Source: a virus (lineage: Duplodnaviria > Heunggongvirae > Uroviricota > Caudoviricetes). Taken from it: a DNA stretch of 44,726 nucleotides. This document shows, piece after piece, positions 16,380 through 44,155 of this stretch (within the stretch, counting starts at the first letter, position 1; each line of letters opens with the position of its first letter). The stretch is taken from the IMG/VR virus record IMGVR_UViG_2802429225_000004; one strand, 5' to 3'. The notes beneath the pieces are model-generated. The model did no database searches, was not told the DNA's origin, and worked only from the letters and a program-made list of their open reading frames with translations. A program made the translations under genes and the position numbers.

Positions 16380-16455
<76 letters not shown>

Positions 16456-16458
16456 TAT

Positions 16459-16533
<75 letters not shown>

Positions 16534-23049: not shown

Positions 23050-23052
23050 AGA

Positions 23053-26298: not shown

Positions 26299-26337
26299 GC
26301 GGTATCCGGAATTCAGATAAATCAGGAGACTGAAAAA

Positions 26338-26673: not shown

Positions 26674-26742
26674 TGGTGAAGTGATTAACTGAAAAAACGG
26701 GTCGCGATGCGGCCCGTTTGTGTTTCTGAAGGAAAATAAATT

Positions 26743-27771: not shown

Positions 27772-27821
27772 GACGGGGCGGGATATTCCCGCCTTTTTCT
27801 TTAGCGCACGGGAGAGATGTG

Positions 27822-28199: not shown

Positions 28200-28557
28200 T
28201 AATGATTTTGACCGGGCTATGGCAAAAGCTGATCACGAGATACTCAGGGCGATGGGGCGTGAGTTTCATATTCAGGCCGGTGGGCGTTTTGTCCATATCT
28301 GGGGCGTACTGGATGAGACTGAGTCTGATGTTCTCCTGAAAAAAGGAGGAGGGATGATTCATGATGTCGCTCCACGGTTGTTTGTTTGCACCCGTGATAT
28401 CGAAGGTGTATCCAGGAAAAGTCGGGTTGAGTGTGATGGTGTTGTTTACTGGGTGGTAAGTATTGGCCCGGACGACAATGGTTTCTGTTATCTGACGCTG
28501 GCGCGTGGGGAACCGGGTACGTCACTGCCGGTTATTGACGGGTGGAGTAAAAAATAA
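28192..28557 (+). CDS. FII: Head completion protein FII-like
   Basis: MSDNDFDRAMAKADHEILRAMG... aligns with remembered lambda FII; start overlaps FI stop. Confidence 0.7.
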   Translation: MSDNDFDRAMAKADHEILRAMGREFHIQAGGRFVHIWGVLDETESDVLLKKGGGMIHDVAPRLFVCTRDIEGVSRKSRVECDGVVYWVVSIGPDDNGFCYLTLARGEPGTSLPVIDGWSKK

Positions 28558-28578
28558 ACTTCATAAGGAGATATCGCA

Positions 28579-29262
28579 ATGGCGCGGGCATCACGCATCC
28601 GGCAAAATCTGTTGTTTGATATCGACGTCGAAGAATTGCGGGATATTGCGGCGCTGGCTGGCGCAACGCAGCACCAGTTTCGTCTGGCCTATTCCCGCGC
28701 ACTGAAGCGAACGGCATCAAAAATGCGCATGAAGGCGCTTGCGGAACTGAAAACCGGCCTGGCTCCCCGCAAAATGGACATGCTGCGCAGGCGTCTTTTT
28801 TTCACTCGCATTACCCGGGGTAATGCAATGGATGAAGCCCGTTTCTGGTTTGGTCTTAATGCGATCAAGATAAAGGATCTACGCGGACGCATTCGTGGAC
28901 GACGTGTTCGTCATCATGATCTCCGTGACCCGGTAACCGGGCGGTTTATCAAAGAGAATCGTGTCAGACGGCGTCGCCGCAAAGCCAGCGATCCGGTTTT
29001 TGAACCCAACGGTTCGTTTTTATCTCCCACCGCATATGAAAACGGGCTGGTGATACGTAGCCGCAAAGAGAACCGACGAACAATCATCATCAAAAATCCG
29101 GAAACCGGGCGCGTCCGGGAGGCTGAAGCCGGTATTTATGCCCGTACAATGGATTATGTTGAAGATGTGGCTTTTGCAGAATGTCTGGAAATTTTTATGA
29201 AAGAGTTCGAATCGGACATCCGGCGACGTGCGAAGTACGGCATTACCGTGACCCCCCGATAA
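28579..29262 (+). CDS. Hypothetical virion protein at head/tail junction (possible tail completion/neck protein)
   Basis: 227 aa; strong RBS; function inferred by position only. Confidence 0.4.
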   Translation: MARASRIRQNLLFDIDVEELRDIAALAGATQHQFRLAYSRALKRTASKMRMKALAELKTGLAPRKMDMLRRRLFFTRITRGNAMDEARFWFGLNAIKIKDLRGRIRGRRVRHHDLRDPVTGRFIKENRVRRRRRKASDPVFEPNGSFLSPTAYENGLVIRSRKENRRTIIIKNPETGRVREAEAGIYARTMDYVEDVAFAECLEIFMKEFESDIRRRAKYGITVTPR

Positions 29263-29278
29263 AAAACGTGAGGACACA

Positions 29279-29842
29279 ATGGCTGAACCCTTATGCATGG
29301 CATCCTGGCACGCTGCTGTGCTGGGTGCCCTGAAAGAACTTAAATGGATCAGGGATGCGGATACCTACCCTGAACGGGTTACGCAACTGGTCACTCCGGC
29401 GGTGTTTCTGGCGGTCGATGGCTGGGATGCGAAAAACAATGCAGACGGACAGATGACGGTGGTGTTGTCTGCTGCGCTGTGGGTGCTGGTTGATCGTGCC
29501 GGTGAGCCGGAGAACGAAAAAAAGGAAGTGGCTGCAAAGCCGGATATTTTTATCCGTTCGGCAGCCGCCGATCTGACGCACTGGCTCGACGGACAGACGT
29601 TCGGGCTGGCAAATGTGGAGCCTGCCATTTTTATATCAGCGGACGCAGATGAAACCGATCCGCGCCTGGATGATTATCTGGTCTGGCAGATTTCATTTAA
29701 CCAGACGGTGACGTTTGGTATGGATCTCTTTGCCACGGATAACCTGCCGCTACAGCGGGCCTGGCTGGGTGTTGCACCGGAGATCGGGCGACAGCATGTG
29801 GATGATTACCGGCTGATTTTTGAGAGAAAGCCACGTGAATGA
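29279..29842 (+). CDS. Hypothetical virion protein at head/tail junction
   Basis: 187 aa; RBS GAGGA; function inferred by position only. Confidence 0.4.
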   Translation: MAEPLCMASWHAAVLGALKELKWIRDADTYPERVTQLVTPAVFLAVDGWDAKNNADGQMTVVLSAALWVLVDRAGEPENEKKEVAAKPDIFIRSAAADLTHWLDGQTFGLANVEPAIFISADADETDPRLDDYLVWQISFNQTVTFGMDLFATDNLPLQRAWLGVAPEIGRQHVDDYRLIFERKPRE

Positions 29843-30455
29843 GGTTCTGGGGGATTTACAGCGCCGCCTGGCAAATATGGTCCGGCGCGGGGTGATCCAC
29901 TCGGTGCGGCTGGACGGTGGTTTTCCGGAATGCCGCGTGGATCTGGGGGATATTGTGACCACCTGGCTGCCATTATGTCAGGGGTTTGCCGGAAAAAACA
30001 GGGCAGATTTTGAGCCGTTTGCTGTGGGTGATGCGGTTACGGTGCTGTCAGAGGCCGGGGAGCTGAATAACGGTCGTGTTTTTCCCGGCTGGAATACCGG
30101 TGAGGCACCGGCTCCGCAGGGCAGCGACAGTGAGCACATCACCCGTTACGGAGATGGTACTGAAATTTGCTATAACCGGGAGACGCACTCACTGACCATT
30201 ATTCTGGCGGAAGGGGGCACCTATGCCATTACCGGGAATGGTGTACTGGACGGAAACGTCATGATTTCAGAAAACCTGATCGTGAACGGACGCACGATGG
30301 TTGAAGGTGAAGTGGTGGTGAAAAGTGATTTTTATGCAAAAGGAGAGGTGACGGATAAATCCGGCAGTATGAGCCGGATCCGGGAAACGTTTAATGGACA
30401 CGACCATCCCGGAGACAGTGGGGGAACCACGAAAGTACCGAATCAGAAAATGTGA
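29820..30455 (+). CDS. Baseplate spike/assembly protein gpV-like (P2 V family)
   Basis: N-terminal OB-like region and C-terminal HDHPGDSGGTT motif match remembered P2 gpV. Confidence 0.7.
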   Translation: MRESHVNEVLGDLQRRLANMVRRGVIHSVRLDGGFPECRVDLGDIVTTWLPLCQGFAGKNRADFEPFAVGDAVTVLSEAGELNNGRVFPGWNTGEAPAPQGSDSEHITRYGDGTEICYNRETHSLTIILAEGGTYAITGNGVLDGNVMISENLIVNGRTMVEGEVVVKSDFYAKGEVTDKSGSMSRIRETFNGHDHPGDSGGTTKVPNQKM

Positions 30456-30493
30456 CCTGCTGCGGCAGGTTTTTTTATGTCCGGAGAATGCAA

Positions 30494-31963
30494 ATGGGGC
30501 AATTACATGGTGTGGAAACCATCGAGCTGACAGCAGGCACGGTGGCGGTAACCACAATAGAGACAGCCATTATTGGGGTGGTGGGAACCGCGCCGCAGGC
30601 TGCCGGGGCTGTGGCAGCAACACTGACAGCGGGAACGCCGTTGCTGGGTAACGAGCTGACCTTTACGGCAAAAGCGGCGGGGCGGAGCGGAAATACCATT
30701 ACCGTTATTGCTGAACAGGCTTTACAGGCAGCAAAAGAAAAAAGTGCGGGTGCGGTCCCCACGTCAGCAAAATGGGAAAACGGAAGCCTGTTGATTTGGC
30801 TTGGATGCAGTGAAGAGGGGGCCGGTAATGCCACCGTCAGCGATGTTGTGACGGCAGTGAATGGCGTGGCTGGGGTCGGGGTGAGTGCCACCGGCAGCGG
30901 TGACGGTATTGTGTCGCCGTTTTCCGGCACACTGAGTGGCGGTGAAGATGAACCGTTTCCGCTGAACACGCCAGTGGCGATGGCGGGAACAACGGCGCTT
31001 TCACGTCTGGGGCTCACCGGAACACTGAAGCAGGCGCTGACGGAGATTAACGACCAGCGTAACGCGCTGTCGGTGATCGTCCGGGTGGAAGAAAAAACGA
31101 AGCCGGAAGAGCAGCGTGCTGCCATTCTTGCGGGGATCAGCATGCTGTCATCGGCAAAATCCGTCACCACGTATCAGCCACGTATTGTGATTGCACCAGG
31201 ATTCAGTGAAGACGATGCGGTAGGTAAGGCACTGGAAACTGTGGCCGGAAAACTGCGGGCAGTGGCGTACGTGGATTGTGCTGCGGGCGCGACACTGCAG
31301 GAAGTGGTGCAGCGTCGTCAGTCTTACGGTGCCCGGACTGAACTACTGCGCCCGCGTGTGCAGGTCAGTAATGCAGAGGGGCAACTGGTGTATCGCCCGT
31401 ATTCGGCGTTTGCTGCCGGACTGCGTGCCCGTATTGACTATGAAAAAGGGTGGTGGTGGAGCAAATCAAACCAGGAGGTTTACAACATCCTCGGTGTTGA
31501 GCAGGTGGATGAATTTATCCTCGGTGAGCGTAACTGCGATGCCAACCTGCTTAATATGCAGAATGTCTCCACCCTGATCCGCCGCGCCGGATTTAAACAC
31601 TGGGGAAACCGGCTGTGCTCGTCCCATCCTCAGTGGCATTTCGAGTCCGTCCGCCGTACTGCGGATGTGATTGAAGACAGTATTCAGGAAGCGATGCTGG
31701 CATATGTTGACCGCCCGCTTGATCGTCAGAATGCGGACGACATCATTGGCACCATTAATGCGTATATGCGCCGTCTGGTGGCAGAAGGTGCCATCTTCGG
31801 GGGGCGGGCATGGCTGGATCCGGAACTGAATACCGCCGAAACGCTGGCAGCCGGTGAACTGTACATCAACTATGACTTCGGTCCCAAATCGCCGACTGAA
31901 CTTATCAGCATGCGGGTGAGCGTCAACAACGAATACGGCATTAAGGAGATGAAGGCAACATGA
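30494..31963 (+). CDS. Contractile tail sheath protein (P2 FI / Mu L family) with an extra internal region
   Basis: N-terminus HGVETIELTAGT...TAIIGVVGTA resembles P2 FI; large size with roughly 100-aa insertion near N-terminus. Confidence 0.8.
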   Translation: MGQLHGVETIELTAGTVAVTTIETAIIGVVGTAPQAAGAVAATLTAGTPLLGNELTFTAKAAGRSGNTITVIAEQALQAAKEKSAGAVPTSAKWENGSLLIWLGCSEEGAGNATVSDVVTAVNGVAGVGVSATGSGDGIVSPFSGTLSGGEDEPFPLNTPVAMAGTTALSRLGLTGTLKQALTEINDQRNALSVIVRVEEKTKPEEQRAAILAGISMLSSAKSVTTYQPRIVIAPGFSEDDAVGKALETVAGKLRAVAYVDCAAGATLQEVVQRRQSYGARTELLRPRVQVSNAEGQLVYRPYSAFAAGLRARIDYEKGWWWSKSNQEVYNILGVEQVDEFILGERNCDANLLNMQNVSTLIRRAGFKHWGNRLCSSHPQWHFESVRRTADVIEDSIQEAMLAYVDRPLDRQNADDIIGTINAYMRRLVAEGAIFGGRAWLDPELNTAETLAAGELYINYDFGPKSPTELISMRVSVNNEYGIKEMKAT

Positions 31964-32466
31964 GCAGTAAAAACACATTACGGGCCTGGACTTTTTTCCG
32001 CCAGGGGATCCGTATTCAGGGAGCGCATGAGTTCACGCCACCCACGCTGTCCATAACCACCACCGATTTACGCACCGGGGCACAGGATGCGCCCACGCCG
32101 GTTGACGACGGCATGGAGGCGCTGACCTGCCAGATTAAATTCTATGGTCTGGATACAGACATGCTGTCCAGTCTCGGATTTGTCAGTGGCAGCCGCTCCC
32201 GCTTCACGGCCTATCAGGGCTATCTGGCAAACGGCACCGCGCTGGGGACCACCGAAGAAATCGAAGGTTTTGTGAAAACGGTGACGCCGGATGCGCGCGG
32301 AAACAGCGGGCTGTCAGAAAATGCGGTGACAGTGGAAATCGCGGTGAATTATTACCGTCAGACGCTGGAGGGGATCGAACTCATTATGATTGATACCGAG
32401 CGTTTTGAGCGTCGGATCAACGGCGTGAATGTTCTCGCCGGCCTGTCGGCAAAAGTGCGTCTCTGA
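31960..32466 (+). CDS. Tail tube protein (P2 FII family)
   Basis: 168 aa; ATGA overlap with sheath gene; synteny sheath-tube. Confidence 0.75.
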   Translation: MSSKNTLRAWTFFRQGIRIQGAHEFTPPTLSITTTDLRTGAQDAPTPVDDGMEALTCQIKFYGLDTDMLSSLGFVSGSRSRFTAYQGYLANGTALGTTEEIEGFVKTVTPDARGNSGLSENAVTVEIAVNYYRQTLEGIELIMIDTERFERRINGVNVLAGLSAKVRL

Positions 32467-32484
32467 GCACTGATTAACGCATAA

Positions 32485-32506
32485 CGGCCTGCGGGCCGTT
32501 TTTTTT
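32485..32506 (+). terminator. Intra-operon rho-independent terminator after tube gene
   Basis: CGGCC-TGCG-GGCCG hairpin followed by T8. Confidence 0.5.
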
Positions 32507-32518
32507 AAGGAGCAGATT

Positions 32519-32818
32519 ATGAATATTCCGGGTGAAACCCGCACCATCACACTGTACACACCTGTCACTCTGGGGGGCGGGGCTGTGCTGGAACACATCA
32601 CCATGCGCGAACCGCTGGTGCGCGATCGCATTGCCTTCACCAAAGACCGGGGAACAGAGGAGGAAAAAGAGGCGCGTATGATTGCGCAGCTTTGTAATCT
32701 GAGTGAGCAGGATATCTGGCTGCTGACCGCAGCGGATTATGCCCAGCTGACGGATGCCTTTAATGTTTTTATGCTGCCACCCGGGAAGCGACCGAAACCG
32801 AAATCTTCAGAGGGTTAA
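32519..32818 (+). CDS. Tail assembly chaperone gpE-like (probable E/E' frameshift gene)
   Basis: 99-aa ORF between tube and tape measure; both alternative frames stay open across the gap to the tape-measure start. Confidence 0.5.
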   Translation: MNIPGETRTITLYTPVTLGGGAVLEHITMREPLVRDRIAFTKDRGTEEEKEARMIAQLCNLSEQDIWLLTAADYAQLTDAFNVFMLPPGKRPKPKSSEG

Positions 32819-32920
32819 GGTTTCTCGGGCGGCGGCTGCATTTTCCTCTTTCCGATTATCTGTCCATGCCGTTCAGTGTGTTTACGGCATTTTTACTGGA
32901 TGAAGTGGAGGCGGTAAAAC

Positions 32921-34570
32921 GTGGGAAGCGTAAGTCAGAATCTTAAGGCCACCGTGTCGTTCGGGGGCAAACTGGACAGTTCGTGGCGTCGTTCGGCGAC
33001 GGATCTGCGAAAAAATCTGCAGGATGTGGAGCAGCAGGCTGCGCGTTTGCGTAAGGAGCAGGCAGAGCTGGCAGCAGAAATGAAGCGGGCGGCGCTGGCA
33101 GGGAAACGTTTTAAGTCGATGGAGGATGAATACGCCCGGCTCACTGCTGAAATTAAGAAAGCGGATGCGGCCCAGAAAAAACTGAACCGGAGCCTTGAGC
33201 GTCGCGATCGGCTCGGACGTTTTATGGGGAAGGGAAAAAGTCTGCTTGCCGGAACCGGCAAATTTGCCTGGAATGCCGGTCTGGCGATGGGGGGCGGTGC
33301 CGTGACCACGGCACTTGGTGCGCTGATTGCTCCGGCAGCCATGAATGCGCAGACGGCTGAAACGGCGGGTAAAGCGACTGCGTATGGCGTGGATACCCGT
33401 ACGTACATGAACTGGGACGCCCTGGCAAAACAGTACGATATGACCGGCGATAATATCGGAGATCTGTTTGAGGAATACCTGCATAAGGCCGGGGAATATA
33501 AACAAAATGGCAAGCAGAGTTCGCTTTCTGACGCCTTTGAAACGCTGGGATTTAAGGAGGGCGATCTTGCCGGACTGAGTGATTCGTCGCAGTTCGAAAA
33601 AATTATCGACAGGGCGCTGTCTCTGGAAGATGAATCAAAGGCATCTTTTGCGCTGGATGCATTGTTTGGTGGTGAAGCCAGTAAACTGCTGATGCTGATC
33701 AAACGTTCAGGAAAAAGTTTTCAGGAACTGCTGGCTGAGCAGGATAAATATAATCTGGTGACAAAAGAGGGGGTGGCTGGCGCACTTGCCGGAAACAAGG
33801 CTGTTTCTGATTTGCAGCAGGTTTTTTCTTCTGCGGTTGCAGAAATTTCCGGACAACTGGGCGCAGAGCTGGCTCCCGCTATACAACAGACAGCGGGTGA
33901 CCTGGCAGAGTGGTTTAAAGGTGGAGGCATTAAAAAGGTTGTGTCTTTTCTGAGGGACACCCTGTATCCGGCAGCCCTGAAGTTTGGCGAAGGCGTCATT
34001 TTTGTCGGAAAAATCATTTTTGCAGCAGCCAAAAAGCTCTCCTGGTTGTTACCGGATGAACAGGGCGATCAGAAGCAGATTCTGGAGTATGTCGGGCGTG
34101 GTGACATGACCGCTGCCCGGACAGTGGCCCGGAACAGCGGGCAGGATGCGTGGCTTGACGGGCAACTGAAAAATAATCCCGATTTTGAAAAGAGTGTCCG
34201 TGAAAAATACAACGCCGCGAAGGGCTTTATGGGCATTGTGGATACGGATGCGTTTCATGAATCGGTGAACAGTTACCTCACGCCGGAAAAAACGTTCGAT
34301 TTTTCGCTGCCGGCAGGATCCGCCGGAAAACAGGATGATCCTTTTGCCAGTGCGGGGGCATGGCAGGCTGCCGTGCAGGCTATTCCTGTTGAGGGCGGAC
34401 AGTCCGGCGCACAGCTGAATGACAACAGTGTGAAGAATTATAACTTCAACATTGTTGCGCAGCCCGGACAGAGCGAACAGGGTATTGCGGACGCCATTGC
34501 CGGAATGACGAAAAACAACCCGGCCTTCAGTGGTAATAATGCGTTGTGGGATGGAGGAAGTGTCTGGTGA
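32921..34570 (+). CDS. Tail tape measure protein
   Basis: 549-aa helical/Ala-Gly-rich protein in tape-measure position; GTG start with GGAGGCGG RBS. Confidence 0.7.
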   Translation: MGSVSQNLKATVSFGGKLDSSWRRSATDLRKNLQDVEQQAARLRKEQAELAAEMKRAALAGKRFKSMEDEYARLTAEIKKADAAQKKLNRSLERRDRLGRFMGKGKSLLAGTGKFAWNAGLAMGGGAVTTALGALIAPAAMNAQTAETAGKATAYGVDTRTYMNWDALAKQYDMTGDNIGDLFEEYLHKAGEYKQNGKQSSLSDAFETLGFKEGDLAGLSDSSQFEKIIDRALSLEDESKASFALDALFGGEASKLLMLIKRSGKSFQELLAEQDKYNLVTKEGVAGALAGNKAVSDLQQVFSSAVAEISGQLGAELAPAIQQTAGDLAEWFKGGGIKKVVSFLRDTLYPAALKFGEGVIFVGKIIFAAAKKLSWLLPDEQGDQKQILEYVGRGDMTAARTVARNSGQDAWLDGQLKNNPDFEKSVREKYNAAKGFMGIVDTDAFHESVNSYLTPEKTFDFSLPAGSAGKQDDPFASAGAWQAAVQAIPVEGGQSGAQLNDNSVKNYNFNIVAQPGQSEQGIADAIAGMTKNNPAFSGNNALWDGGSVW

Positions 34571-34653
34571 GTGTGGGTTCGGTTATTGCTCTCGCTGAAG
34601 ACAGCCTTCAGCGTTACAACAGTTATCTCCGTGGTGCTGCAGATGCCAGAGTC

Positions 34654-35046
34654 ATGCTGATGCTGGGGGATTTCGCCTTTTCCGTGGATACCACGGCATA
34701 TAACCAGCTGACCCGTGAGGCCGGGTGGACCTGGAGCGAGCAGTCGCGTATCGGGCAGCAGAGTCTGCTGCAGTACACCGGGAAAAACGGGCGAACCGTC
34801 CGCCTTGAAGGGGAATCGCACGCCTTTTTGGGGAAGTCAGGGACGGAGGCGGTGAACACGCTGTATGACCTGGCAAATAAGGCTGAGCCGCAACTGCTGG
34901 TCAGTGGAGAAGGTGATGTGCTGGGATGGTGGGTGGTGGAGCGTTTTTCTGATTCCACCGACTGCTTTTTACCTGGTGGTGGGCACCGTAACAAAAAGTG
35001 GAGTCTGGAGCTGAAACATTATGCCGACGATCTGGATAACCCGTGA
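34654..35046 (+). CDS. Tail protein gpU-like (P2 U family)
   Basis: MLMLGDFAFSVDTTAYNQL... resembles P2 gpU N-terminus; ORF opens upstream at 34546, start uncertain. Confidence 0.6.
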   Translation: MLMLGDFAFSVDTTAYNQLTREAGWTWSEQSRIGQQSLLQYTGKNGRTVRLEGESHAFLGKSGTEAVNTLYDLANKAEPQLLVSGEGDVLGWWVVERFSDSTDCFLPGGGHRNKKWSLELKHYADDLDNP

Positions 35047-35236
35047 CGGGGATGTGCTTGATGCGATTTGCGCCACGCATTACGGCACGGAAAATCTGTC
35101 TGCCGTGCTCACTCTTGTGCTGGAGGCCAATCAGGGGTTGGCAGAGAAGGGCGCGGTTTATCCGGCGGGGATCCGGATTGTGTTGCCTGAAATCACACAA
35201 CAGGTGTCTGAGTCGCCATACAGCCTGTGGGATTAA
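35021..35236 (+). CDS. Tail protein X-like (P2 gpX family)
   Basis: 71 aa; GDVLDAICATHYG...VLEANQGLAE.GAV.P.G resembles P2 gpX. Confidence 0.6.
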   Translation: MPTIWITRDGDVLDAICATHYGTENLSAVLTLVLEANQGLAEKGAVYPAGIRIVLPEITQQVSESPYSLWD

Positions 35237-35244
35237 GGGAGGAG

Positions 35245-36447
35245 ATGATGACGTCATTATCCGAACAGCTGCAGGCAATAAATGCTGCGTATCAGGAGTC
35301 CCTGAACAGTGAGGAAAAACAGGAAACCATTGCCACGACCGTCCGGGAATTCTGCCCGGCGTATCGGGTGACAGCTGAAGGGCGGGATATCACGCGGGTG
35401 CTGGCCCGTTATCTTGTGGATATCACTCTGACGGATTACGGCGGAGCCACCGCCAAATCTGATGAACTGAAAATCACGCTGCTTTCTGAAACACTGCCCC
35501 TGCCGACAAAGGGGGCGCGTCTGCGGGTGGCGATGGGGTTTAACGGTAATCTGGTGGACAAGGGCTGGTTTGTGGTGTGCGGCGTGAGCAGCAGCGGCCC
35601 GCCGCGGCGGATCGAGATTTATGCTACCGCTGCCCCCATGAATGCGGAAAAGCAGTCCGGTGATGTGCTGAATCAGAAAACACGCAGCTGGGATAATCTC
35701 ACGCTGGGTGATCTGGTGAAAACTGTTGCCACGGAAAACGGACTGAAGGCCCGGGTGGCGGAGAAGCTGGCGGGGATCCGCATTACCCATGTGGATCAGG
35801 TGGCAGAATCGGATGCCAGCCTGTTGTCCCGCCTTGCCCGGACGTATAACGCCGTCAGTAAACCTGCCGGAGGTTACTGGTTGTTTCTGGAGCAGGGTGC
35901 CGGAACCACCGTATCGGGCGCGCCCCTGAAGACCGTGACGCTGACACCTTCCGTGGTGTCATCCTGGAATTATCAGGAAGGTGAACGGGGGAGCTCTGGC
36001 GGCGGTGGAGATAAAAAAAAGAAGAAAGAAAAAATCACGGTTCGTTATTTTGACAAGGCTGACGGGCGAACCAAAACGGCAACCGTGGAGCATGACGGCT
36101 CGTCTGTAACCAGTCCGTACACGCAACCGGAAAAGGAAACGGCTGAACAACAGGCAAAATCGAAAAAAACACAGGCGCAACGCAACAGCCGGAAAATGAC
36201 GCTGACAGGGCCGTGCCGTCCTTCATATGTTGCCATGACCGCCGAATCCGGCGTGGTGACATCCGGATTTGGTAAGCGGGAAGATCGCCGCTGGCTCGTG
36301 GAATCACTGTTTTTTTCCCTCTCATCTTCAGGCTTTACCTTCACGTTTAATCTGGTGGCTGAAATCAAAAACGCCAGTAAATCAGACAAAAAATCCGGTG
36401 ATAAAACAGGGCCGGATTATTTTGGTATCGGATCGGGAAAAAAATAA
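35245..36447 (+). CDS. Tail protein gpD-like (P2 late control D family)
   Basis: About 400 aa in gpD position; GGGAGG RBS; contains an A8 homopolymer at 36013-36020. Confidence 0.65.
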   Translation: MMTSLSEQLQAINAAYQESLNSEEKQETIATTVREFCPAYRVTAEGRDITRVLARYLVDITLTDYGGATAKSDELKITLLSETLPLPTKGARLRVAMGFNGNLVDKGWFVVCGVSSSGPPRRIEIYATAAPMNAEKQSGDVLNQKTRSWDNLTLGDLVKTVATENGLKARVAEKLAGIRITHVDQVAESDASLLSRLARTYNAVSKPAGGYWLFLEQGAGTTVSGAPLKTVTLTPSVVSSWNYQEGERGSSGGGGDKKKKKEKITVRYFDKADGRTKTATVEHDGSSVTSPYTQPEKETAEQQAKSKKTQAQRNSRKMTLTGPCRPSYVAMTAESGVVTSGFGKREDRRWLVESLFFSLSSSGFTFTFNLVAEIKNASKSDKKSGDKTGPDYFGIGSGKK

Positions 36448-36449
36448 TC

Positions 36450-36803
36450 ATGAATGGTGTGAACTGCCGGACAGGGAAGCGTCTGTCCGGTGCGGCGCAT
36501 CTGCGCCAGTCTGTCAGCGATATTCTGAACACGCCAGTGGGAAGCCGTGTTCTGGTCAGGGATTACGGCAGCGATCTTTTTGAATTGCTGGACTCTCCCC
36601 GGGATGACCTGTTGAGGCTGCGCATAATAGCTGCCACGGCGACGGCGCTGGCACGCTGGGAGCCCCGGCTGAAAGTGTCAAAAGTGATCGTAACGTTTCC
36701 GGAGGATGAGGCCGGATGTGTGGTGGATATCATGGGGACGAATACGGAAACCGGTACACAGGTGACAACAGGAGGAATAACCGTTTATGGCAGAAAGTTA
36801 TGA
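36450..36803 (+). CDS. Baseplate wedge protein gpW/gp25-like
   Basis: 117 aa; GPW_gp25-like pattern (SVSDILNTPVGSRVLVRDYGSDLFELLD). Confidence 0.75.
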   Translation: MNGVNCRTGKRLSGAAHLRQSVSDILNTPVGSRVLVRDYGSDLFELLDSPRDDLLRLRIIAATATALARWEPRLKVSKVIVTFPEDEAGCVVDIMGTNTETGTQVTTGGITVYGRKL

Positions 36804-37695
36804 TGTGATCAATCTTTCGGATTTGCCCGTACCGGATGCCATCGTGGTGCCTGATGCGGCGGTGATTTTCGGGGCCTGGCTGGCACGTCTGCGCGAACTG
36901 GATCCTGAATTTGATGCCCTGGTGGAATCCGACCCGGCTTACAAGCAGGGCGAAGTGACAGCCTTTCAGCTTACCCTGGCTTTTCAGCGGGTGAATGATG
37001 CTGTGCGGGCCGTTTTTCTGGCAAGTGCGCAGAATGCCGATCTCGATCAGATTGGCGCGGCGTTCAATGTCGGACGTATGGTGATTGTTCCGGCAAATCC
37101 GGATGCCGTGCCTCCGACGGATGCGGTTATGGAAGAGGACGACGCTTTTCGCGAACGCATTCAGTTGTCCTGGTCGCAACTGAATACTGCAGGCGCCCGC
37201 AATGCTTATCGTTTTCATGCCCGCTCTGCTGATGAAAATGTGCTGGATGCTGATGCCTATGGTCCGGAAGAGCACGGGCGTGCGGGGGAGGTGGATGTCT
37301 ACGTATTGTCCCGTGAAGGAAATGGCACTGCCAGCGAGGCGTTGCTGGATGCGGTCAGTGCGCGGCTGAATGCTGATGAAATTCGTCCGCTGACGGATTT
37401 TGTGACGGTGAAAAGCGCCATTATTAATGACTATACCGTGACGGCTGAGCTGGAAATACCGGACGGTCCGGATGCCGGTGAAGTGCTGGAAAATGCGAAA
37501 AACACGCTGATGTCTTATACCCGGCTGGCAAACCGGATTAATGGCATGGTGCCGCTGTCCGCTATTTACGCAGCACTGCAACAGTCCGGTGTGGCGCGGG
37601 TTATTCTGTCCAGTCCCCGGGCCGATATTGAACCGGCAACCGGTACGGCTCCCCGTTGTGCCGCCGTTAATGTGACGCGCAGAGAGATGTGGTGA
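36787..37695 (+). CDS. Baseplate assembly protein gpJ-like
   Basis: 302 aa, matches size and position of P2 gpJ. Confidence 0.75.
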   Translation: MAESYDVINLSDLPVPDAIVVPDAAVIFGAWLARLRELDPEFDALVESDPAYKQGEVTAFQLTLAFQRVNDAVRAVFLASAQNADLDQIGAAFNVGRMVIVPANPDAVPPTDAVMEEDDAFRERIQLSWSQLNTAGARNAYRFHARSADENVLDADAYGPEEHGRAGEVDVYVLSREGNGTASEALLDAVSARLNADEIRPLTDFVTVKSAIINDYTVTAELEIPDGPDAGEVLENAKNTLMSYTRLANRINGMVPLSAIYAALQQSGVARVILSSPRADIEPATGTAPRCAAVNVTRREMW

Positions 37696-38249
37696 TGACA
37701 GAGACGTTTCGCTCACTTCTGCCGCCTTCCGCTGTCAGGCCGGAGCGGTCACAGGAGCAGGCCACAACAGAAAGTATCCTGACGCTTGATGCGGATATGG
37801 TCAGAAAGGTGAAAAATCCGGATACCTGTCCGTTGCATCTGTTGCCGTGGCTGGCATGGGAGTTTGCTGTGGATTTCTGGCAGGACGACTGGAGCGAAGA
37901 GCAGAAGCGGCAGATTTTACGTGATGCGGCATATGTGCATCAGCACCGGGGGACGGCGGGGGCAGTGTTGCGGGCGCTCAGTGCGGTTGGTGTTCCGGCA
38001 GCAATCAAAGAGTGGTGGCAGGATTCACCGCGCAAAAAACCGTACACTTTTCGTGTGGAGCTGTTTTTGCGGGAAGGGGCTGACAGTGTGCTTTACAGTC
38101 GGGTCAGGACGCTGGTCATTAAGGCCAAGAATTTACGCAGCGGTCTGAGCACCATTGACGTAAATACGAATATCGGAAAGGACAGCCAGTTTTATGTTGG
38201 TGGCGCGGTGACCGCGCATATTGATGTGGTGATTGAGGCGGGAGAATAA
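37695..38249 (+). CDS. Baseplate/tail protein gpI-like
   Basis: ATG overlaps J stop (TGATG); about 184 aa. Confidence 0.7.
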   Translation: MTETFRSLLPPSAVRPERSQEQATTESILTLDADMVRKVKNPDTCPLHLLPWLAWEFAVDFWQDDWSEEQKRQILRDAAYVHQHRGTAGAVLRALSAVGVPAAIKEWWQDSPRKKPYTFRVELFLREGADSVLYSRVRTLVIKAKNLRSGLSTIDVNTNIGKDSQFYVGGAVTAHIDVVIEAGE

Positions 38250-38250
38250 C

Positions 38251-39528
38251 GTGACCACGAAACATTGCAGTATTCTGACAAACAGGGGAAAGGCGCTGGA
38301 GGCCGCGTCTGCGGCGGGTGGTGCGCCGGTGGTACTGGACGGGTTTGTGGTGGGAGACGGAAACGGAAATGCTGTCACGCCAGAGGCAGGGCAGACGGCT
38401 CTGGTCAGGGAAGTTTATCGCGGCACCATATCACGTCTGGCGGTCTCGCCTGAGCAGGAAAACCAGTTTATTGCGTATCTAGTGCTGCCGGAGGGCGTGG
38501 GGGGATTTACGGTCAGGGAAGCGGGGCTGCTGACCAGTGATGGTGAGCTTTATGCCGTCGGAAGTTGTGCTGCCATTGAGAAACCGAAAAATGGTGTGAC
38601 AGCCACACTGCAGTTCCGGCTGGCAGTGGCTGAAAGTGCGCAGGTCACACTGAATGTGGCAACCGGAGATGGTCTGTTTCTGCGACAGGACAGGAATCTT
38701 TCGGATGTGGAAGACAGGGATGAGGCTGTCGAAAACCTCGGATTAAAACCCACGGTGGACAAGGCAAAAAATGCCGTTCAGCGTGATGGTGACACCATGA
38801 GTGGTGATTTGACGTTTGAAAATGACTCAATCCTTGCGTGGATTCGAAATACAGATTGGGCAAAGATTGGGTTTAAAAATGATTCGGATTCAGACACCGA
38901 TTCATATCTGTGGTTTGAAGCGGGGGATAATGGAAACGAATATTTCAAGTGGCGGAGTAAGTCTGGAACCACAACCAAAGACCTGATGAATCTCAAATGG
39001 GATGCGCTGTATGTTCTGGTGAATGCCATCATCAATGGTGAGGTTGTATCAAAATCAGCAAACGGCTTTCGTATTGCTTATGGTAATTACGGTTTTTTTG
39101 TCAGAAACGACGGGTCGAACACATATTTTATGTTGACCAATGCTGGCGACAGCATGGGGAGCTATAACGGACTAAGGCCATTCTGTATAAATAATGCCAC
39201 TGGCGCAGTCACGATGGGCAACGGGCTGACTGTCAGCGGGGGGGTAAACGTTTCCAGCGGAAATATCACCGCCGGAGGAGGTCAGGTTATACCGGGTAAT
39301 TACAGCAATTTTGATGCCCGTTATAAGACCAAATCAGAAGGTGTGCAGGACGTGCGCCTTGGCGGTTATCAACAGATGGGCAGTACAGGCTCAAACCTGG
39401 CTCCCTCTGGTTATGTCAGTGTGGGTGGCTACTGCTACGGAGACTGGGATAACTCTGCCGACGGGTGGTTTATCCGACCGCTTCAGAAACTGATTAACGG
39501 AACCTGGTATAACGTCGCGAGTATGTAA
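38251..39528 (+). CDS. Tail fibre protein (P2 gpH-like N-terminal domain, divergent AT-rich C-terminal part)
   Basis: N-terminus resembles P2 H (GDGNGNAVTPEAGQTALVREVYRG...VGGFTVREAGLL..DGELYAV); GTG start after gpI stop. Confidence 0.75.
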   Translation: MTTKHCSILTNRGKALEAASAAGGAPVVLDGFVVGDGNGNAVTPEAGQTALVREVYRGTISRLAVSPEQENQFIAYLVLPEGVGGFTVREAGLLTSDGELYAVGSCAAIEKPKNGVTATLQFRLAVAESAQVTLNVATGDGLFLRQDRNLSDVEDRDEAVENLGLKPTVDKAKNAVQRDGDTMSGDLTFENDSILAWIRNTDWAKIGFKNDSDSDTDSYLWFEAGDNGNEYFKWRSKSGTTTKDLMNLKWDALYVLVNAIINGEVVSKSANGFRIAYGNYGFFVRNDGSNTYFMLTNAGDSMGSYNGLRPFCINNATGAVTMGNGLTVSGGVNVSSGNITAGGGQVIPGNYSNFDARYKTKSEGVQDVRLGGYQQMGSTGSNLAPSGYVSVGGYCYGDWDNSADGWFIRPLQKLINGTWYNVASM

Positions 39529-39530
39529 TT

Positions 39531-40076
39531 ATGTTGCATTTAAAAAATATTACGTCGGGCAATCCGAAAACAGCCGAACAATACGAACTGACCAAAAGGT
39601 ATGGCGTCGAGTGGTTGTATACAGAATCCGGTGAAAACTGGTATGAAATCCAGAAAAATTTTTCACCTGACACATTAAAAGTTGAATATCTGGATACAGG
39701 GAAAGTTACCTGGGTTGGAAAAGATGCTGCGTCAATTAATCCCAGAAACCGGAGCGTGATTGAAATTACCGATAACACAGCGAACCGACAAATTGATGCC
39801 TCAGGTTACTGGTTTTACCGGGATGACAAATTCATATTTGACTACGGTAAAAAGGCAGAAGATGAGCGGGTGAGTAAGCTCAAGGATGTAAGTCGGTTAA
39901 CTGCTGAATGGGAAAAAGACCTGCTGCTGGGGTTAATCAGCGACGAAGACAAAGAAAAGCTGAAAGCCTGGCGGATGTACGCGAAATCGCTGCAGGCGCT
40001 GGATTTCAGCACTATCACCGATAAAACCTCATACAGAGCCATTGAATGGCCTGTCTCTCCGGAAGCCTCTTCCTGA
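39531..40076 (+). CDS. Tail fibre assembly chaperone (gpG/U-like)
   Basis: 181 aa, AT-rich, immediately downstream of fibre gene. Confidence 0.6.
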   Translation: MLHLKNITSGNPKTAEQYELTKRYGVEWLYTESGENWYEIQKNFSPDTLKVEYLDTGKVTWVGKDAASINPRNRSVIEITDNTANRQIDASGYWFYRDDKFIFDYGKKAEDERVSKLKDVSRLTAEWEKDLLLGLISDEDKEKLKAWRMYAKSLQALDFSTITDKTSYRAIEWPVSPEASS

Positions 40077-40099
40077 TTTAATTAATCGCGAGAAAAACT

Positions 40100-42055
40100 A
40101 TGTCTGTAGTGATATCAGGTGCGCTGATAGATGGCGCAGGCATCCCCATGTCCGGATGCCACATAATTCTGAAATCCCGGGTAAACACCTCAGAGGTGGT
40201 GATGCGCACAGTTGCCGACGTGGTGACAGGAAACTGTGGCGAGTACTGTTTTAAGGCGCAGACCGGAAAATATTGCGTATATCTGAAACAGGACTGGCGC
40301 GACGAGTACTGTGTTGGCGATATTGCTGTATACGATGACTCAAAGCCTGGCACGTTGAACGATTTTCTGACCGCCCTTGATGAAGGCGACCTCAAACCCG
40401 ATGTGGTGAAACGCTTTGAGGAAATGGTGGCGCAGGCGCAGCAGAGCGCGGAAGTGGCAGCGGAAAGCGAACAACAGGCCGGGCAACATGTCGCTGATGC
40501 GCAGAAGATTAAGAGCGACTGCCAGACGCTGGCGGATAACGTACAGCAGAATGCAGAAGCCGTTGCCGAAGATAAAAAGCAGGTGGCACAGCTGGCATCA
40601 TCTGCCACACAGGATGCGGCCCGCGCAGAGCAGGCCGTTAAGGACGCAGACAAAATCGTCGATAAGGCTGTTGATAAACTCGGTGAAGCCGCAACGCTGA
40701 CCGGCGAGGCAAAGGCCAGCGCAGAAGCGGCAGCAAAAAGCGAGCAGAATGCGAAACAGCACAGGGACGAGGCGCAACGGATAGTTGATGACCTGAAGGG
40801 AGGCAATGCTTCCACGACAGAAAAAGGCCTGGTGCAACTCTGTAGTGATACAGACAACGACAGCGAAGAACTGGCAGCCACGCCAAAAGCCGTCAAAACC
40901 GTCATGGACGAGACGAAAACAAAAGCGCCACTGGACAGCCCGGCGTTCACAGGTACGCCAACCACACCAACCCCGCCGGACGATGCGACCGGGCTGGAGA
41001 TGGCGAACGCGGCATTTGTCCGCAAACTGCTCGCCGCGCTGGTTGACTCGTCCCCGGAAGCCCTGGACACACTGAACGAGCTGGCAGCGGCGCTGGGCAA
41101 CGACCCTAATTTTGCGACGACTGTCACTAAGGCGCTGGCGGGTAAACAGCCGCTTAATGACGTGTTAACGGCGGTCAGCCAGATAACACCGGAAGAAAAC
41201 ACGCTGCCTTATTTCAGTGCAGAGGGCCGGATTTTACTGGCGCAGCTGTCAGAAAAAGCCCGCGCATTACTGGCACTGGACACGCCTGAAGCCATGCGCA
41301 CGGAGCTTGAACTGAAAGCGGCTGCGACGATGGAGCCCCAGAGCGATATCCGCGACCGCACACCAGGCAGACTGGCACTGTCCGGCATGTACGGATTCGG
41401 TCAGGCATTTGCCAGCACCGACGCTCTGGCGTTTGACGGACAGGCCGATTTTGCTGAATGGCTGAAAGAGGCCACCCCGGGGCGTTATGCGGTCAGTATT
41501 GCGGACTCTTCCACACTACTGGCAGGCACCACAAAATTTAACGGCATCATTGATGTGATGTGGTCGCCTTTTGATAACGATGAATCGGACACAACGCGTA
41601 AATTCAAAATGCTGCTGTGTTTTAACCAGTATTACGAAGGTGAGCACAGTATTCATCGTCTGACTTACCGCTGGAGTGGAAACAACTGGAATGCAACAGT
41701 AAGCCCTGTCATTTACGACGGCGATTCGCTGGCGTTCTTACTGTCCCGGACAGCAGGCTCAGGCTCATATTTCAAATACCCGGCAGTGGGTGTTCCGGTG
41801 CTTGCTGTTTATCGCGGAACAACTTCCGGGGATAAAGAAATCAAAATTGGCCTGGGTGATGTGGTGCCAGGGTCACAACTGGGCGGAGTTAATCTTTCGT
41901 GCACAATATCTTCTGCGGGGGCTGGCTCCTACGGTTCCACACCGAGTGCAGGAGCTACAGGGTACACTTTTCCGGGGCGTTATATGGCGTTATCCGGGGT
42001 CAGGGACTCTTACGGAACAAGCGGTCGTATCTGCCTGTTTGTGCGCATCGAGTAA
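40100..42055 (+). CDS. Side tail fibre protein (lambda Stf-like)
   Basis: N-terminus MSVVISGALIDGAGIPMSGCHIILKSRVNTSEVV... parallels lambda Stf; internal conserved motif KGLVQL...ELAATPKAVKTVMDE; Ala/Gln-rich coiled region. Confidence 0.75.
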   Translation: MSVVISGALIDGAGIPMSGCHIILKSRVNTSEVVMRTVADVVTGNCGEYCFKAQTGKYCVYLKQDWRDEYCVGDIAVYDDSKPGTLNDFLTALDEGDLKPDVVKRFEEMVAQAQQSAEVAAESEQQAGQHVADAQKIKSDCQTLADNVQQNAEAVAEDKKQVAQLASSATQDAARAEQAVKDADKIVDKAVDKLGEAATLTGEAKASAEAAAKSEQNAKQHRDEAQRIVDDLKGGNASTTEKGLVQLCSDTDNDSEELAATPKAVKTVMDETKTKAPLDSPAFTGTPTTPTPPDDATGLEMANAAFVRKLLAALVDSSPEALDTLNELAAALGNDPNFATTVTKALAGKQPLNDVLTAVSQITPEENTLPYFSAEGRILLAQLSEKARALLALDTPEAMRTELELKAAATMEPQSDIRDRTPGRLALSGMYGFGQAFASTDALAFDGQADFAEWLKEATPGRYAVSIADSSTLLAGTTKFNGIIDVMWSPFDNDESDTTRKFKMLLCFNQYYEGEHSIHRLTYRWSGNNWNATVSPVIYDGDSLAFLLSRTAGSGSYFKYPAVGVPVLAVYRGTTSGDKEIKIGLGDVVPGSQLGGVNLSCTISSAGAGSYGSTPSAGATGYTFPGRYMALSGVRDSYGTSGRICLFVRIE

Positions 42056-42068
42056 CGGGGAATAAAAC

Positions 42069-42647
42069 ATGAAAATCAGAGCAGTAAAGGGCATCAGAAA
42101 CGCCCATTATCTCGAAAATGGTGCGGTTGACTGCGAGGTGTTATTTGAAGGTGAAACGGAATTCGTCCCGTATACCGCCATGCAGGACGATAGCGCCCCG
42201 ACAGGCCAGCGCATCTGGGAAGAGTTACAGAGCGGCAAGTGGGGGAAAATCGCCCCATTCACCGTCACGCCTGAACTTATCGCAGCGGCAAAAGATGCCA
42301 AACGCCAGGAAATCGAAGCCTGGCGCACAGAACAGGAGGCGCAGCCGTTCACGTTCGAATGGAACGGTCGCACCTGGAATGCTGGCCCAGACTCACTGGC
42401 CCGTCTCTATCCGGTGGTAATGGCTGCAAAATCTGATACGGCACGAACCGCCCTTGCGTGGGGCGACGCTGATAATCAACAGGTGAAACTGTCGATGCAG
42501 GAACTTGAAGAACTGGCGGCAGCACTGGCGCAGGCGCAGGTCAATCGCAACGACGAGATTTATCGTCGGCAGCGGGAGATGAAAGAAGAACTGAATAACT
42601 TGGATGATTTGCGCTCAATTAGAGCGATTGCAATTAGCAGTAATTAG
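42069..42647 (+). CDS. Tail fibre assembly protein (Tfa)
   Basis: 192 aa; characteristic Tfa pattern (WNGRTWNAGPDSLARL...ELNNLDDLRSIRAI). Confidence 0.8.
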   Translation: MKIRAVKGIRNAHYLENGAVDCEVLFEGETEFVPYTAMQDDSAPTGQRIWEELQSGKWGKIAPFTVTPELIAAAKDAKRQEIEAWRTEQEAQPFTFEWNGRTWNAGPDSLARLYPVVMAAKSDTARTALAWGDADNQQVKLSMQELEELAAALAQAQVNRNDEIYRRQREMKEELNNLDDLRSIRAIAISSN

Positions 42648-42686: not shown

Positions 42687-42714
42687 AGTGAGGGGGCGCC
42701 CCTCACTATTTATT
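42687..42714 (+). terminator. Hairpin terminator between convergent tfa and cargo genes
   Basis: 9-bp stem AGTGAGGGG-GCG-CCCCTCACT followed by ATTTATT. Confidence 0.5.
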
Positions 42715-43258
42715 ACCACCAGCTATCAGCTTTACTCTCTCGTGCTTTTCCCTCACTTTGCAACAATTCTTTGGTACCAGTTGAAATATTACGCCGAGCA
42801 TCCGCTTCTGATTGAATAACGTCAGTTTGTGCAGCCCGCTCCTTGAGTTCTTGGTCCAGAAAATCGTTTGCTCTATTTACCCTGGCCCTTTTAGCTTCGA
42901 GTTCGAGTTTTCGGTTTTCTAGCTCAAGTTGGCGTAATTGATCTTCATAATCTTGATCGCGTTTTTTATCTGCCGCCATCTCCGCTTCGAGCTTAGCTTT
43001 ACGCTCAAACTCAGCCGCTCGTCGTTGTTTTTCTTTTGCTGCTGCCATAGCCGCTGCTTTCTCTTTGCGAATCCTTTCCGCATTGGCACGTTGGCGCTCT
43101 TGTTCTTTACGTGCATCTTCAATACGTTTTTCTTCGGCTTTACCTTCATTTTCGGCTCGCGCAATAGCCGCTAATTGTTCCTGTAAAGAAGACGCGTTAA
43201 CGTAAAAAGTGCTTAGGCACGGCAAAGCTAATAGTATATATAAAGCAAGACGTGTCAT
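42713..43258 (-). CDS. Secreted/periplasmic coiled-coil protein (TolA-like K/E/A/R-rich), unknown function
   Basis: 181 aa; N-terminal signal-peptide-like segment MTRLALYILLALPCLSTFYVNA then charged heptad-like repeats; 12 nt downstream of SlyB-like gene. Confidence 0.5.
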   Translation of the reverse strand: MTRLALYILLALPCLSTFYVNASSLQEQLAAIARAENEGKAEEKRIEDARKEQERQRANAERIRKEKAAAMAAAKEKQRRAAEFERKAKLEAEMAADKKRDQDYEDQLRQLELENRKLELEAKRARVNRANDFLDQELKERAAQTDVIQSEADARRNISTGTKELLQSEGKARESKADSWW

Positions 43259-43270
43259 CTGAAATGGCCA

Positions 43271-43783
43271 TTATTTATTATCAGGGCATGTTGCATTTGG
43301 TTGAATACGTGTTTCGTTTTCTTTAGTTGAAATCATGGCTGCTAATCCAGGTGCAAATTGGCAAGCTCTACCAACTTGAGTCGATGTATAAACTTTTGTA
43401 CCTTCTTTGTATGTTAGAGAAACGCCTTCAACAATTGTTTTATCTTTGACTAATGAACCAGCGGCTGCACCAAGTGCGGTTCCACCTACAGCCCCTGCGG
43501 TGGTTGCCAGTTTCGAACCACTTTTGGTGTTATGTCCAATTACTCCTCCAGCAACGGCACCAACTACAGCACCGAATGTTTGTGCTGCTTCTTTATTTTC
43601 TTTGTTGTCCACAGCAATTTTTGCAGGAAGAACCGAAATGATAGTTATCATTTTGGTTTCTTGTTTGGAATTAACCTGAGTGGTGTCATAAACATCTGCA
43701 GCAAGATGTTCTGCAGTAGACTGACACCCACTTAATGCAAAGACAGCTAATAAAGAAATGGTTGCTTTATTTAATTTCAACAT
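43271..43783 (-). CDS. SlyB-like outer-membrane lipoprotein (glycine-zipper domain)
   Basis: Lipobox LSGC; glycine zipper GAVVGAVAGGVIG...AGAVGGTALGAAAG; overall pattern resembles remembered E. coli SlyB; AGGAGAG RBS. Confidence 0.6.
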   Translation of the reverse strand: MLKLNKATISLLAVFALSGCQSTAEHLAADVYDTTQVNSKQETKMITIISVLPAKIAVDNKENKEAAQTFGAVVGAVAGGVIGHNTKSGSKLATTAGAVGGTALGAAAGSLVKDKTIVEGVSLTYKEGTKVYTSTQVGRACQFAPGLAAMISTKENETRIQPNATCPDNK

Positions 43784-44048
43784 TTTACTTGCTCTCCTAG
43801 TTTCTGAGAAACTGCAAATATATTTACCTGAGCTTTTGTGTCAATATTTTTGGGGTTGTTTTGTTGTCTTTAATCAAAAAAAGTATCCTGCTCATATAGT
43901 TATGTTTAGTGTTTTTATGTTTTTTAATAAATTTCATAAATAGCTGAATTTATTGATATCAATATATAAACTTATCGTGCATACATTGCCCAAAATACAG
44001 TTTCAGAAGGGGGCTGGTTGTTGTTGGGGGCAATGTTATCAGTGGGAA

Positions 44049-44126
44049 ATGCAGGATGAACTGAATAATCTGGATGATTTAAGCTCAATCAGAGAGATGA
44101 CGATTAGCGGCAATCACGCTCGATAA
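44049..44126 (+). pseudogene. Remnant/duplicate of tail-fibre-assembly gene 3' end
   Basis: 25-codon ORF MQDELNNLDDLSSIREMTISGNHAR; about 80 percent nucleotide identity to the last 55 nt of the tfa gene at 42590-42647. Confidence 0.5.
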
Positions 44127-44132
44127 AATTAA

Positions 44133-44155
44133 CCCCGGTGATCATCCGGGGTTTT
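44133..44155. terminator. Bidirectional hairpin terminator
   Basis: CCCCGG-TGATCAT-CCGGGG followed by TTTT on plus strand; lies between tfa remnant and convergent antirepressor-like gene. Confidence 0.5.

Follow-up and report, generated by a model that had tools for sequence, protein, structure and literature searches.

The window that we analysed, a stretch of 44,726 nucleotides (nt) from a tailed virus of the class Caudoviricetes (IMG/VR record IMGVR_UViG_2802429225_000004), is integrated as a prophage in Escherichia sp. MOD1-EC5950 (GCA_002965345.1, contig PTSR01000003.1), where it adjoins trpA. Directly after its baseplate gene gpI there are four intact genes on the + strand, which we call F1 (a tail fibre), T1 (a Tfa-family protein), F2 (a second fibre), and C2 (a protein with a DUF4376 domain). 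The public assembly makes the same four gene calls (425, 181, 651, and 192 amino acids, or aa). The features of this locus, with E values after the names of the matching families, are:

36787-37695, + strand: baseplate protein gpJ, 302 aa (PF04865, 1.5e-25), 40% identical to P2 gpJ over 297 aa
37689-38249, + strand: baseplate protein gpI, 186 aa (PF09684 Tail_P2_I, 5.5e-39), 38% identical to P2 gpI
38251-39528, + strand: F1, baseplate tail fibre of the P2 gpH / Mu S type, 425 aa, GTG start
~38257-38658, + strand: N-terminal attachment domain of F1 (PF12571, 1.4e-34)
~38857-39189, + strand: Gp34_trimer-like domain of F1 (PF21446, Gp34_trimer, 7.9e-35)
39531-40076, + strand: T1, Tfa-family protein, 181 aa (PF02413 Caudo_TAP, 5.5e-24)
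40077-40099, + strand: spacer between T1 and F2, 23 nt
40100-42055, + strand: F2, add-on side fibre, 651 aa (PF08400, 4e-62; Phage_fiber_2, 1.5e-15)
40100-40504, + strand: collar or anchor domain of F2, aa 1-135 (PF08400, full profile 1-134 covered)
after the anchor, + strand: shaft of F2, coiled and alanine-rich
40811-40930, + strand: Phage_fiber_2 repeat of F2, aa 238-277, single copy
41285-42055, + strand: distal part of F2, aa ~396-651, with a fold that was not matched to any known one
42069-42647, + strand: C2, DUF4376 protein, 192 aa (PF14301, 6e-17; 62.5 bits against a cut-off of 25)

A first-pass annotation of this sequence had proposed that a contractile-tailed phage carries two distinct pairs of fibre and chaperone here, and this was borne out: the four open reading frames (ORFs) are intact, and genes for a sheath and a tube are present. 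A doubt raised at the time, that one of the fibre genes might be a pseudogene with frameshifts, can be dismissed, as the ORFs are uninterrupted, the public gene calls are identical, and same-length (651 aa) homologues of F2, which are 97-98% identical, are found in four other protein clusters.

The first pair is, as had been proposed, a P2 gpH-like fibre with its chaperone. Against P2 gpH, F1 has an identity of 38% over the N-domain and of 47% over the C-terminal half (E = 3e-69), and the structure of Mu gpS (5YVQ_A) matches it with E = 3.3e-114. Besides the PF12571 domain, it has a shaft and tip of the Mu S / P2 H type, it lies just after gpJ and gpI, and a Tfa gene comes next, 2 nt downstream. 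gpJ, which like gpI resembles its P2 counterpart, is part of the docking platform for F1, and the receptor-binding tip of F1 is its C-terminus; neither Pfam nor NCBIfam has a match in the distal part. T1 is 36% identical to P2 gpG and matches the structure of Mu gpU (5YVQ_B) with E = 3.9e-35. It has a Caudo_TAP domain, a variable N-half that is matched to the tip of F1, and a conserved C-half; the median pairwise identities of the two halves are 64% and 87% across the 26 cassettes described below. Tfa proteins reportedly have two domains, a variable N-terminal one and a conserved C-terminal one. From these similarities, we infer that T1 is the assembly chaperone for F1, of the gpG/U type. A terminator scan of the spacer between T1 and F2 gave no convincing terminator, which implies that the two pairs are co-transcribed.

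The second fibre had been described as lambda Stf-like, and this is true of its proximal part. The N-domain of F2 is 43% identical to residues 1-136 of lambda Stf, and the two proteins also share the Phage_fiber_2 repeat (68%) and a 54-aa segment of the shaft (41%). However, there is no similarity to lambda Stf (orf-314) past aa 395 of F2, so that the distal ~255 aa, the expected receptor-binding part, are unrelated. F2 has the PF08400 collar domain but not the Stf-type distal tip with a Tfa-family chaperone. Because only the anchor and shaft motifs are common, while the tip and the downstream gene are unrelated, F2 is not a full orthologue of Stf. The tip of lambda Stf is gp37-like, binds OmpC, and needs Tfa, whereas the partner of F2 is a DUF4376 protein. 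Also, lambda is a siphovirus with the Stf collar on the bare tube, while the tail of the window is contractile. Among solved structures, the anchor matches residues 1-93 of the Stf of Ur-lambda (9E7M; PMC12617516) with E = 3.5e-18, and this likeness extends to the repeat and the shaft segment. A weaker match is to the collar spike gp40 of myophage XM1 (7KJK), with E = 5e-4 for the N-domain of F2 and 6.6e-9 for the whole of F2.

F1 and F2 have no significant similarity to each other (E = 0.46). The distal 271 aa of F2 have no Pfam match, and NCBIfam likewise has none on the distal part. An AlphaFold2 model of the distal domain, made from an alignment of 27 sequences, has a mean predicted local distance difference test score (pLDDT) of 72. 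A Foldseek search of this model against the PDB gave nothing under E = 0.1, and against a viral library the matches were only partial, to fibres of the phages Av-05 and Goslar that are themselves uncharacterised (template-modelling scores, or TM-scores, below 0.4). So the structure search for the distal part of F2 yielded no pointer to a receptor.

At 651 aa, F2 is a short-shaft version of commoner forms of ~1044 aa, and its residues 273-651 match their last 380. Aligned against a long form (locus L002, 7389-10523), F2 is in frame and its residues 273-510 align at two different places. The comparison suggests that the short F2 arose by the loss of ~390 aa via recombination between internal repeats of the shaft. 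We also note that many homologues of F2 in NCBI records carry the name "shikimate transporter." This label is probably an error that was propagated from prophages inserted in the transporter gene ydfJ.

The start codon of C2 is 14 nt past the stop of F2. The first-pass annotation had called this second partner a Tfa protein, and here it was mistaken. By BLASTP, C2 has no similarity to lambda Tfa (best E = 0.30), and Pfam finds DUF4376 alone, which rules out C2 as a relative of lambda Tfa. It does have the marks of a DUF4376 chaperone-type protein: the domain is C-terminal, the gene is directly after a fibre gene, and its sequence co-varies with the tip of F2 (see below). In Alteromonas phages V22 (gp26/gp27) and A5 (gp8/gp9), a DUF4376 gene is also found immediately after a fibre gene, and gp27 of V22 was shown experimentally to be required for a functional fibre (PMC7289586, PMC10579305). 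The fibres and hosts of these phages are unrelated to those of the window, and the match is limited to the C-terminal part of C2. By analogy, C2 is presumed to be a chaperone or cap for the tip of F2.

The first-pass annotation had also read the two fibre types as suggesting dual receptor specificity or an exchangeable host-range module that was acquired by recombination. Carrying both is no special acquisition of this phage: the dual-fibre layout is not peculiar to the window and is standard in several widespread types of Escherichia prophages. The same four genes, in the same order and with the same 23-nt spacer, are found in phiP27 (L54-L57; NC_003356, sequenced in 2002), in Rac-SA53 (tail1-tail4), in vB_Apl-pPE4 (gp67-gp70), and in E. 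coli RM10740 (at the ompW/trp locus), and the T1-F2 junction is present in 195 of 5426 complete E. coli genomes. Like the window, phiP27, Rac-SA53, and pPE4 encode a fibre, a Tfa protein, a PF08400 fibre, and a DUF4376 protein. Their T1 is 39-75% identical to that of the window and their C2 is 72-78% identical; over its first ~170-220 aa, the F2 of the window is 76-88% identical to that of phiP27, and all of them have almost the same anchor. They differ from the window in the N-terminus and tip of F1, in the tip of F2, in the length of F2 (490-1061 aa), and in the baseplate, which is Mu-like in phiP27 and of a third type in Rac-SA53 and pPE4.

To survey this layout more broadly, we fetched and classified 80 loci from IMG/VR that encode the F2 anchor. 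In most of them, F2-C2 follows F1-T1, with a baseplate that is P2-like (as in the window), Mu-like (as in phiP27), or of the Rac-SA53 type. T1 is immediately upstream of F2, with the fixed 23-nt spacer, in about 70 of the 80. In five loci (L069, L082, L083, L084, and L087), F2-C2 is found after gpD instead, in phages with the canonical P2 order H-G-FI-FII-...-U-X-D, and H-G is ~6 kb upstream. Thus, the second cassette need not adjoin a Tfa gene. Three more loci (L034, L071, and L080) are siphoviruses with lambda J in which one PF08400 fibre directly follows another: the anchor of the first is of the lambda Stf type, with a Tfa gene after it in L071 and L080, and the second fibre is of the F2 type. 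In these three, DUF4376 comes after the second fibre wherever the contig continues, and the two different collar domains may share one ring or form two. The ORF that begins with the F2 anchor encodes 422-1047 aa in most of the loci that are not cut by a contig end; a few are much shorter, for example 125-297 aa.

There is also a natural relative with a single set of fibres. In E. coli E400634 (L006; NZ_CM128600.1), F2 has been deleted, and a 120-nt remnant of DUF4376 (6226-6345 of that locus) remains after the Tfa gene, beside a truncated ydfJ. A scan of genome contigs with the anchor domain gave five loci in Escherichia and Shigella, but a query with a single sequence reaches close relatives only, so this does not gauge the taxonomic breadth. 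In the searchable literature, we found nothing specific on the function of the cassette, on PF08400 in myoviruses, or on the fibres of phiP27.

To see which parts of the cassette travel together, we compared the pairwise identities of nine segments across 26 unique complete cassettes (325 pairs, Spearman's rho). The most conserved segment is the F2 anchor (median 92.6%) and the least conserved is the N-domain of F1 (median 25%). The tip of F1 varies with the N-half of T1 (rho = 0.62), and the tip of F2 (its last 150 aa) varies with the first 60 aa of C2 (rho = 0.90), which is a statistical co-variation; the tips of F1 and F2 vary without regard to each other (rho = 0.00). The identity of the C-half of T1 is correlated with that of the F2 anchor (rho = 0.58). 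We also note that the C-terminal DUF4376 domain of C2 is correlated more strongly with the F2 anchor (rho = 0.73) than with the F2 tip (rho = 0.50). The likely reason is that the "constant" parts of the cassette have a lineage in common, although there may be a functional link between this domain and the anchor.

The fibre region of the window is itself a mosaic of three pieces, as mapped by blastn against 84 related loci. Each piece has its best match in a phage with a different type of baseplate, and the breakpoints are within the fibre genes:

36000-38800: piece with best match L026, 98.7% nucleotide identity, P2-like baseplate, as in the window
38800-38810: first recombination breakpoint, inside F1 at ~aa 184-187, in a conserved mid-region
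38810-40756: piece with best match L062, 95.8% nucleotide identity, Rac-SA53-type baseplate
40756-40925: second recombination breakpoint, which spans the Phage_fiber_2 repeat of F2
40925-42622: piece with best match L013, whose F2 has 1042 aa, 97.2% nucleotide identity, phiP27-type baseplate

This three-piece structure, with breakpoints in the fibre genes, supports the idea of exchangeable modules. Together with the independent assortment of the tips, it strongly supports the earlier proposal that modules for host range are exchanged by recombination: the cassette contains two receptor-binding modules, and each is exchanged independently. By comparison, P2 and Mu, whose gpH/gpG and gpS/gpU (5YVQ) are clear homologues of F1 and T1 in the same J-I-H-G order, carry one fibre system alone, and in Mu the fibre is varied through inversion of the G segment. 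The window is unlike Mu in that it has no invertase and its variation comes from module exchange and from a second fibre. We considered and rejected an invertible fibre segment of the Mu G/Gin, P1 C/Cin, or e14 P/Pin type: the four genes are on one strand, there are no long flanking inverted repeats, and the ORFs downstream of C2 encode a DUF5384 protein, a glycine-zipper lipoprotein, and an ORF6N antirepressor, and none encodes an invertase.

The anchor of F2 is independent of the type of tail that it is found on. We compared all of the virion proteins of the window, phiP27, and Rac-SA53, and outside the cassette there is no protein in common that BLAST can detect. A common docking partner for the three tail types thus did not emerge from that comparison. 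Specifically, the J proteins, the I proteins, and the N-termini of F1 from these three phages have no similarity to each other that BLAST can detect, and yet they have nearly the same F2 N-terminus. In a set of 40 unique pairings of a tail type with an anchor, the identity of the anchor averages 86.2% within a tail type and 87.0% between tail types (permutation p = 0.73), and identical 135-aa anchors are found on different tail types. Because the anchor is no more similar within tail types than between them, it does not seem to be adapted to a tail-specific partner. Furthermore, F2-C2 follows F1-T1 on three types of baseplate, gpD in phages with the P2 order, and Stf-Tfa in lambda-like phages, which argues that F2-C2 is autonomous. 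Fibres with PF08400 have also been reported in short-tailed Stx phages (PMC3368898).

How might such an anchor attach to a tail? Two virion structures offer precedents. In Ur-lambda, twelve N-domains of Stf form a closed collar at the junction of gpV and gpM, with contacts by loops only, and carry four trimeric fibres (PMC12617516). In XM1, six trimers of gp40 (eighteen N-domains) bind gp4 and gp5 at the neck, which are the head-completion and tail-terminator rings (PMC10457771). XM1 gp40 (7KJK) is like F2 in that its Ig-like N-domain is homologous and leads into a trimeric coiled coil, and the tail that carries it is a simple contractile one of the P2 kind. It is unlike F2 in that the similarity is weak, its C-terminus is a tailspike, and its gene is away from the baseplate fibre genes.

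On balance, we favour a reading in which the phage has two adsorption fibres that are attached differently, and we think it reasonably probable that F1 is a baseplate fibre and F2 is an add-on that is anchored by a ring, probably with two receptors. The N-domain of F1 would be specific for a P2-like gpJ/gpI baseplate, and its tip would be folded by T1. By analogy with Ur-lambda and XM1, the first ~95-135 residues of F2 would form a ring around the six-fold axis of the tail, trimeric fibres would project from this ring, and C2 would fold or cap their tips. On a sheathed tail, the likeliest site for such a ring would be the neck, at the head-completion and tail-terminator rings as in XM1, with the distal end as the alternative; the neck is our best guess. 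Since the two fibres have unrelated tips, two different structures on the cell surface are probably recognised by the virion, and dual receptor specificity is plausible. F2 probably would give the initial reversible binding and F1 would trigger contraction. Both tips are swapped independently by recombination at conserved linkers, namely the mid-region of F1, the block that the F2 anchor forms with the C-half of T1, the Phage_fiber_2 repeat, and the C-terminal domain of C2.

We can go further and ask if F2-C2 is a plug-in fibre, whose collar self-assembles around essentially any six-fold tail or neck without adapting to a partner. One and the same anchor (with up to 100% identity) would then be expected on three tail types, in phages with the P2 order, and in lambda-like siphoviruses that already have Stf. 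We consider this idea possible but less likely than not.

Several points weigh against our reading of F2 as a ring-anchored second fibre. The searchable literature gave us no virion structure, proteomics, or genetics for the phage in the window or for its relatives with the cassette. The similarity to XM1 gp40 is weak if the N-domain alone is considered (E = 5e-4). The collar of lambda is on the bare distal tube, a surface that in a myovirus lies under the sheath, which makes the site of the ring here a guess. The usual adjacency of T1 and F2 (~70 of 80 loci, at the fixed spacer) and the correlation of the C-half of T1 with the F2 anchor (rho = 0.58) could reflect a functional link rather than mere linkage of the DNA. 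Finally, gene flow in the very recent past, rather than function, could account in part for near-identical anchors on different tail types.

The site of the ring leads to the least unlikely of the other explanations, that F2 forms a ring at the tail's distal end, with a lambda-like topology, and is thus a second set of fibres at the level of the baseplate rather than a neck fibre. Its closest structural homologue is the Stf of Ur-lambda (E = 3.5e-18, as compared to 5e-4 for XM1), whose collar is distal, and the F2 gene is at the end of a baseplate and fibre operon. Nevertheless, in a contractile tail the sheath surrounds the tube, no common sequence can be detected among the baseplates of the three tail types, and the sole solved myophage with the anchor domain has it at the neck. 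So we consider a distal ring to be unlikely. Alternatively, F2 might be anchored to the first fibre system via T1, which would give a branched or serial fibre. The position of T1 directly upstream of F2 in most loci, 23 nt away, fits with this, as does the fact that the C-half of T1 and the F2 anchor behave as one conserved block of DNA with correlated identities. Also, Mu Tfa is reported to stay on the tip of the fibre (cited in PMC10579305). But in the five loci with the P2 order, F2-C2 is ~6 kb from H-G; T1 varies from 39% to 100% identity and falls into three subfamilies while the anchor stays above ~80%; and the homologous domain of lambda is in direct contact with proteins of the tube, in a collar that contains no Tfa (PMC12617516). 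Anchoring via T1 seems improbable to us.

It could also be argued that F2-C2 is non-functional cargo, a lambdoid side-fibre module that was picked up by recombination among co-resident prophages and is absent from the particles. The prophage is heavily mosaic, and E400634 shows that natural relatives can lose F2 and keep just a remnant of DUF4376. We are more skeptical of this idea than of any of the others. Both ORFs are intact in the window, and the F2 ORF is long in most of the surveyed loci that are not cut. Three tail types have retained the cassette, and so have ~195 of 5426 complete E. coli genomes. And the co-variation of the F2 tip with the N-terminus of C2 (rho = 0.90) implies selection on a working pair, which counts against cargo.

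Fibre tips set host range in temperate coliphages, and this locus has two tips that are exchanged independently, each with a matched, presumed chaperone. The dual-fibre design itself was sequenced long ago and is widespread, so the feature that seems worth following up is the independence of the F2 anchor from the tail type. If the anchor truly is independent of the tail, then F2-C2 would be a natural universal adaptor that adds a second receptor specificity to unrelated phages. This would account for the trading of host range among prophages of a single cell, and it would be a ready-made handle by which engineered phages or tailocins could be given further receptor specificities. More immediately, some annotations can be corrected: the DUF4376 partner is commonly labelled as "Tfa" or "tail fiber protein," and, as mentioned above, homologues of F2 are labelled as a shikimate transporter.

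The rest of the prophage is mosaic to a high degree as well: its head is of the lambda type, its tail is of the P2 type, and its early region is Rac-like. The virion module (20613-38249) is a hybrid that combines lambda-type genes for the head and for packaging with a contractile tail of the P2 type. The former (Nu1/A terminase, W, B portal, C/Nu3, D, E, FI, and FII-like) have ~75-77% nucleotide identity to lambda-like phages, and the latter comprises sheath, tube, tape measure, gpU, X, D, W, J, and I. A gene for a gpV-like baseplate spike (29820-30455) is located ahead of the sheath gene. The genes for a head-closure protein and for a neck or tail-completion protein are at 28066-28557 and 28579-29262. 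The two genes that mark the tail as contractile are:

30452-31963: sheath gene, marker of a contractile tail
31960-32466: tube gene, with gpU, X, D, W, J, and I after it

At the right edge of the fibre cassette, between C2 and the antirepressor gene, there is a low-GC (0.39) cassette on the minus strand (42713-43844) that resembles a moron, which is an added block of genes with its own transcription. The features of this region are:

42692-42704: hairpin of the moron-like cassette
42713-43258, - strand: DUF5384 protein, in the moron-like cassette
43271-43783, - strand: glycine-zipper lipoprotein with weak similarity to TraT
43844-43817, - strand: strong promoter-like site, 11/12 consensus positions
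44040-44114, + strand: 75-nt remnant from another C2-like gene (its 3' end), a direct repeat (family D1) that is 79% identical to 42570-42644
44131-44153: hairpin terminator, 3' of the C2-like remnant

PHROGs labels the family of the lipoprotein as "DNA methyltransferase," which looks wrong. Judging from the repeat, the C2-like remnant is a probable scar of an earlier exchange or insertion at this edge of the cassette. In RM10740, the C2 gene directly abuts the antirepressor gene, so it appears that the moron-like cassette was inserted here, or was imported along with a new F2-C2, and that the end of the old gene was left behind.

At the left edge of the prophage there is an integrase along with a Rac-like RecE exonuclease. 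The latter has 824 aa (1422-3896, - strand), matches PHROG 2082 over its full length, and adjoins the integrase. Hence the early region is Rac-like, while the tail is not. Lastly, two adjacent tRNA genes, tRNA-Thr (TGT) and tRNA-Gly (TCC), are found within the prophage at 16380-16533.

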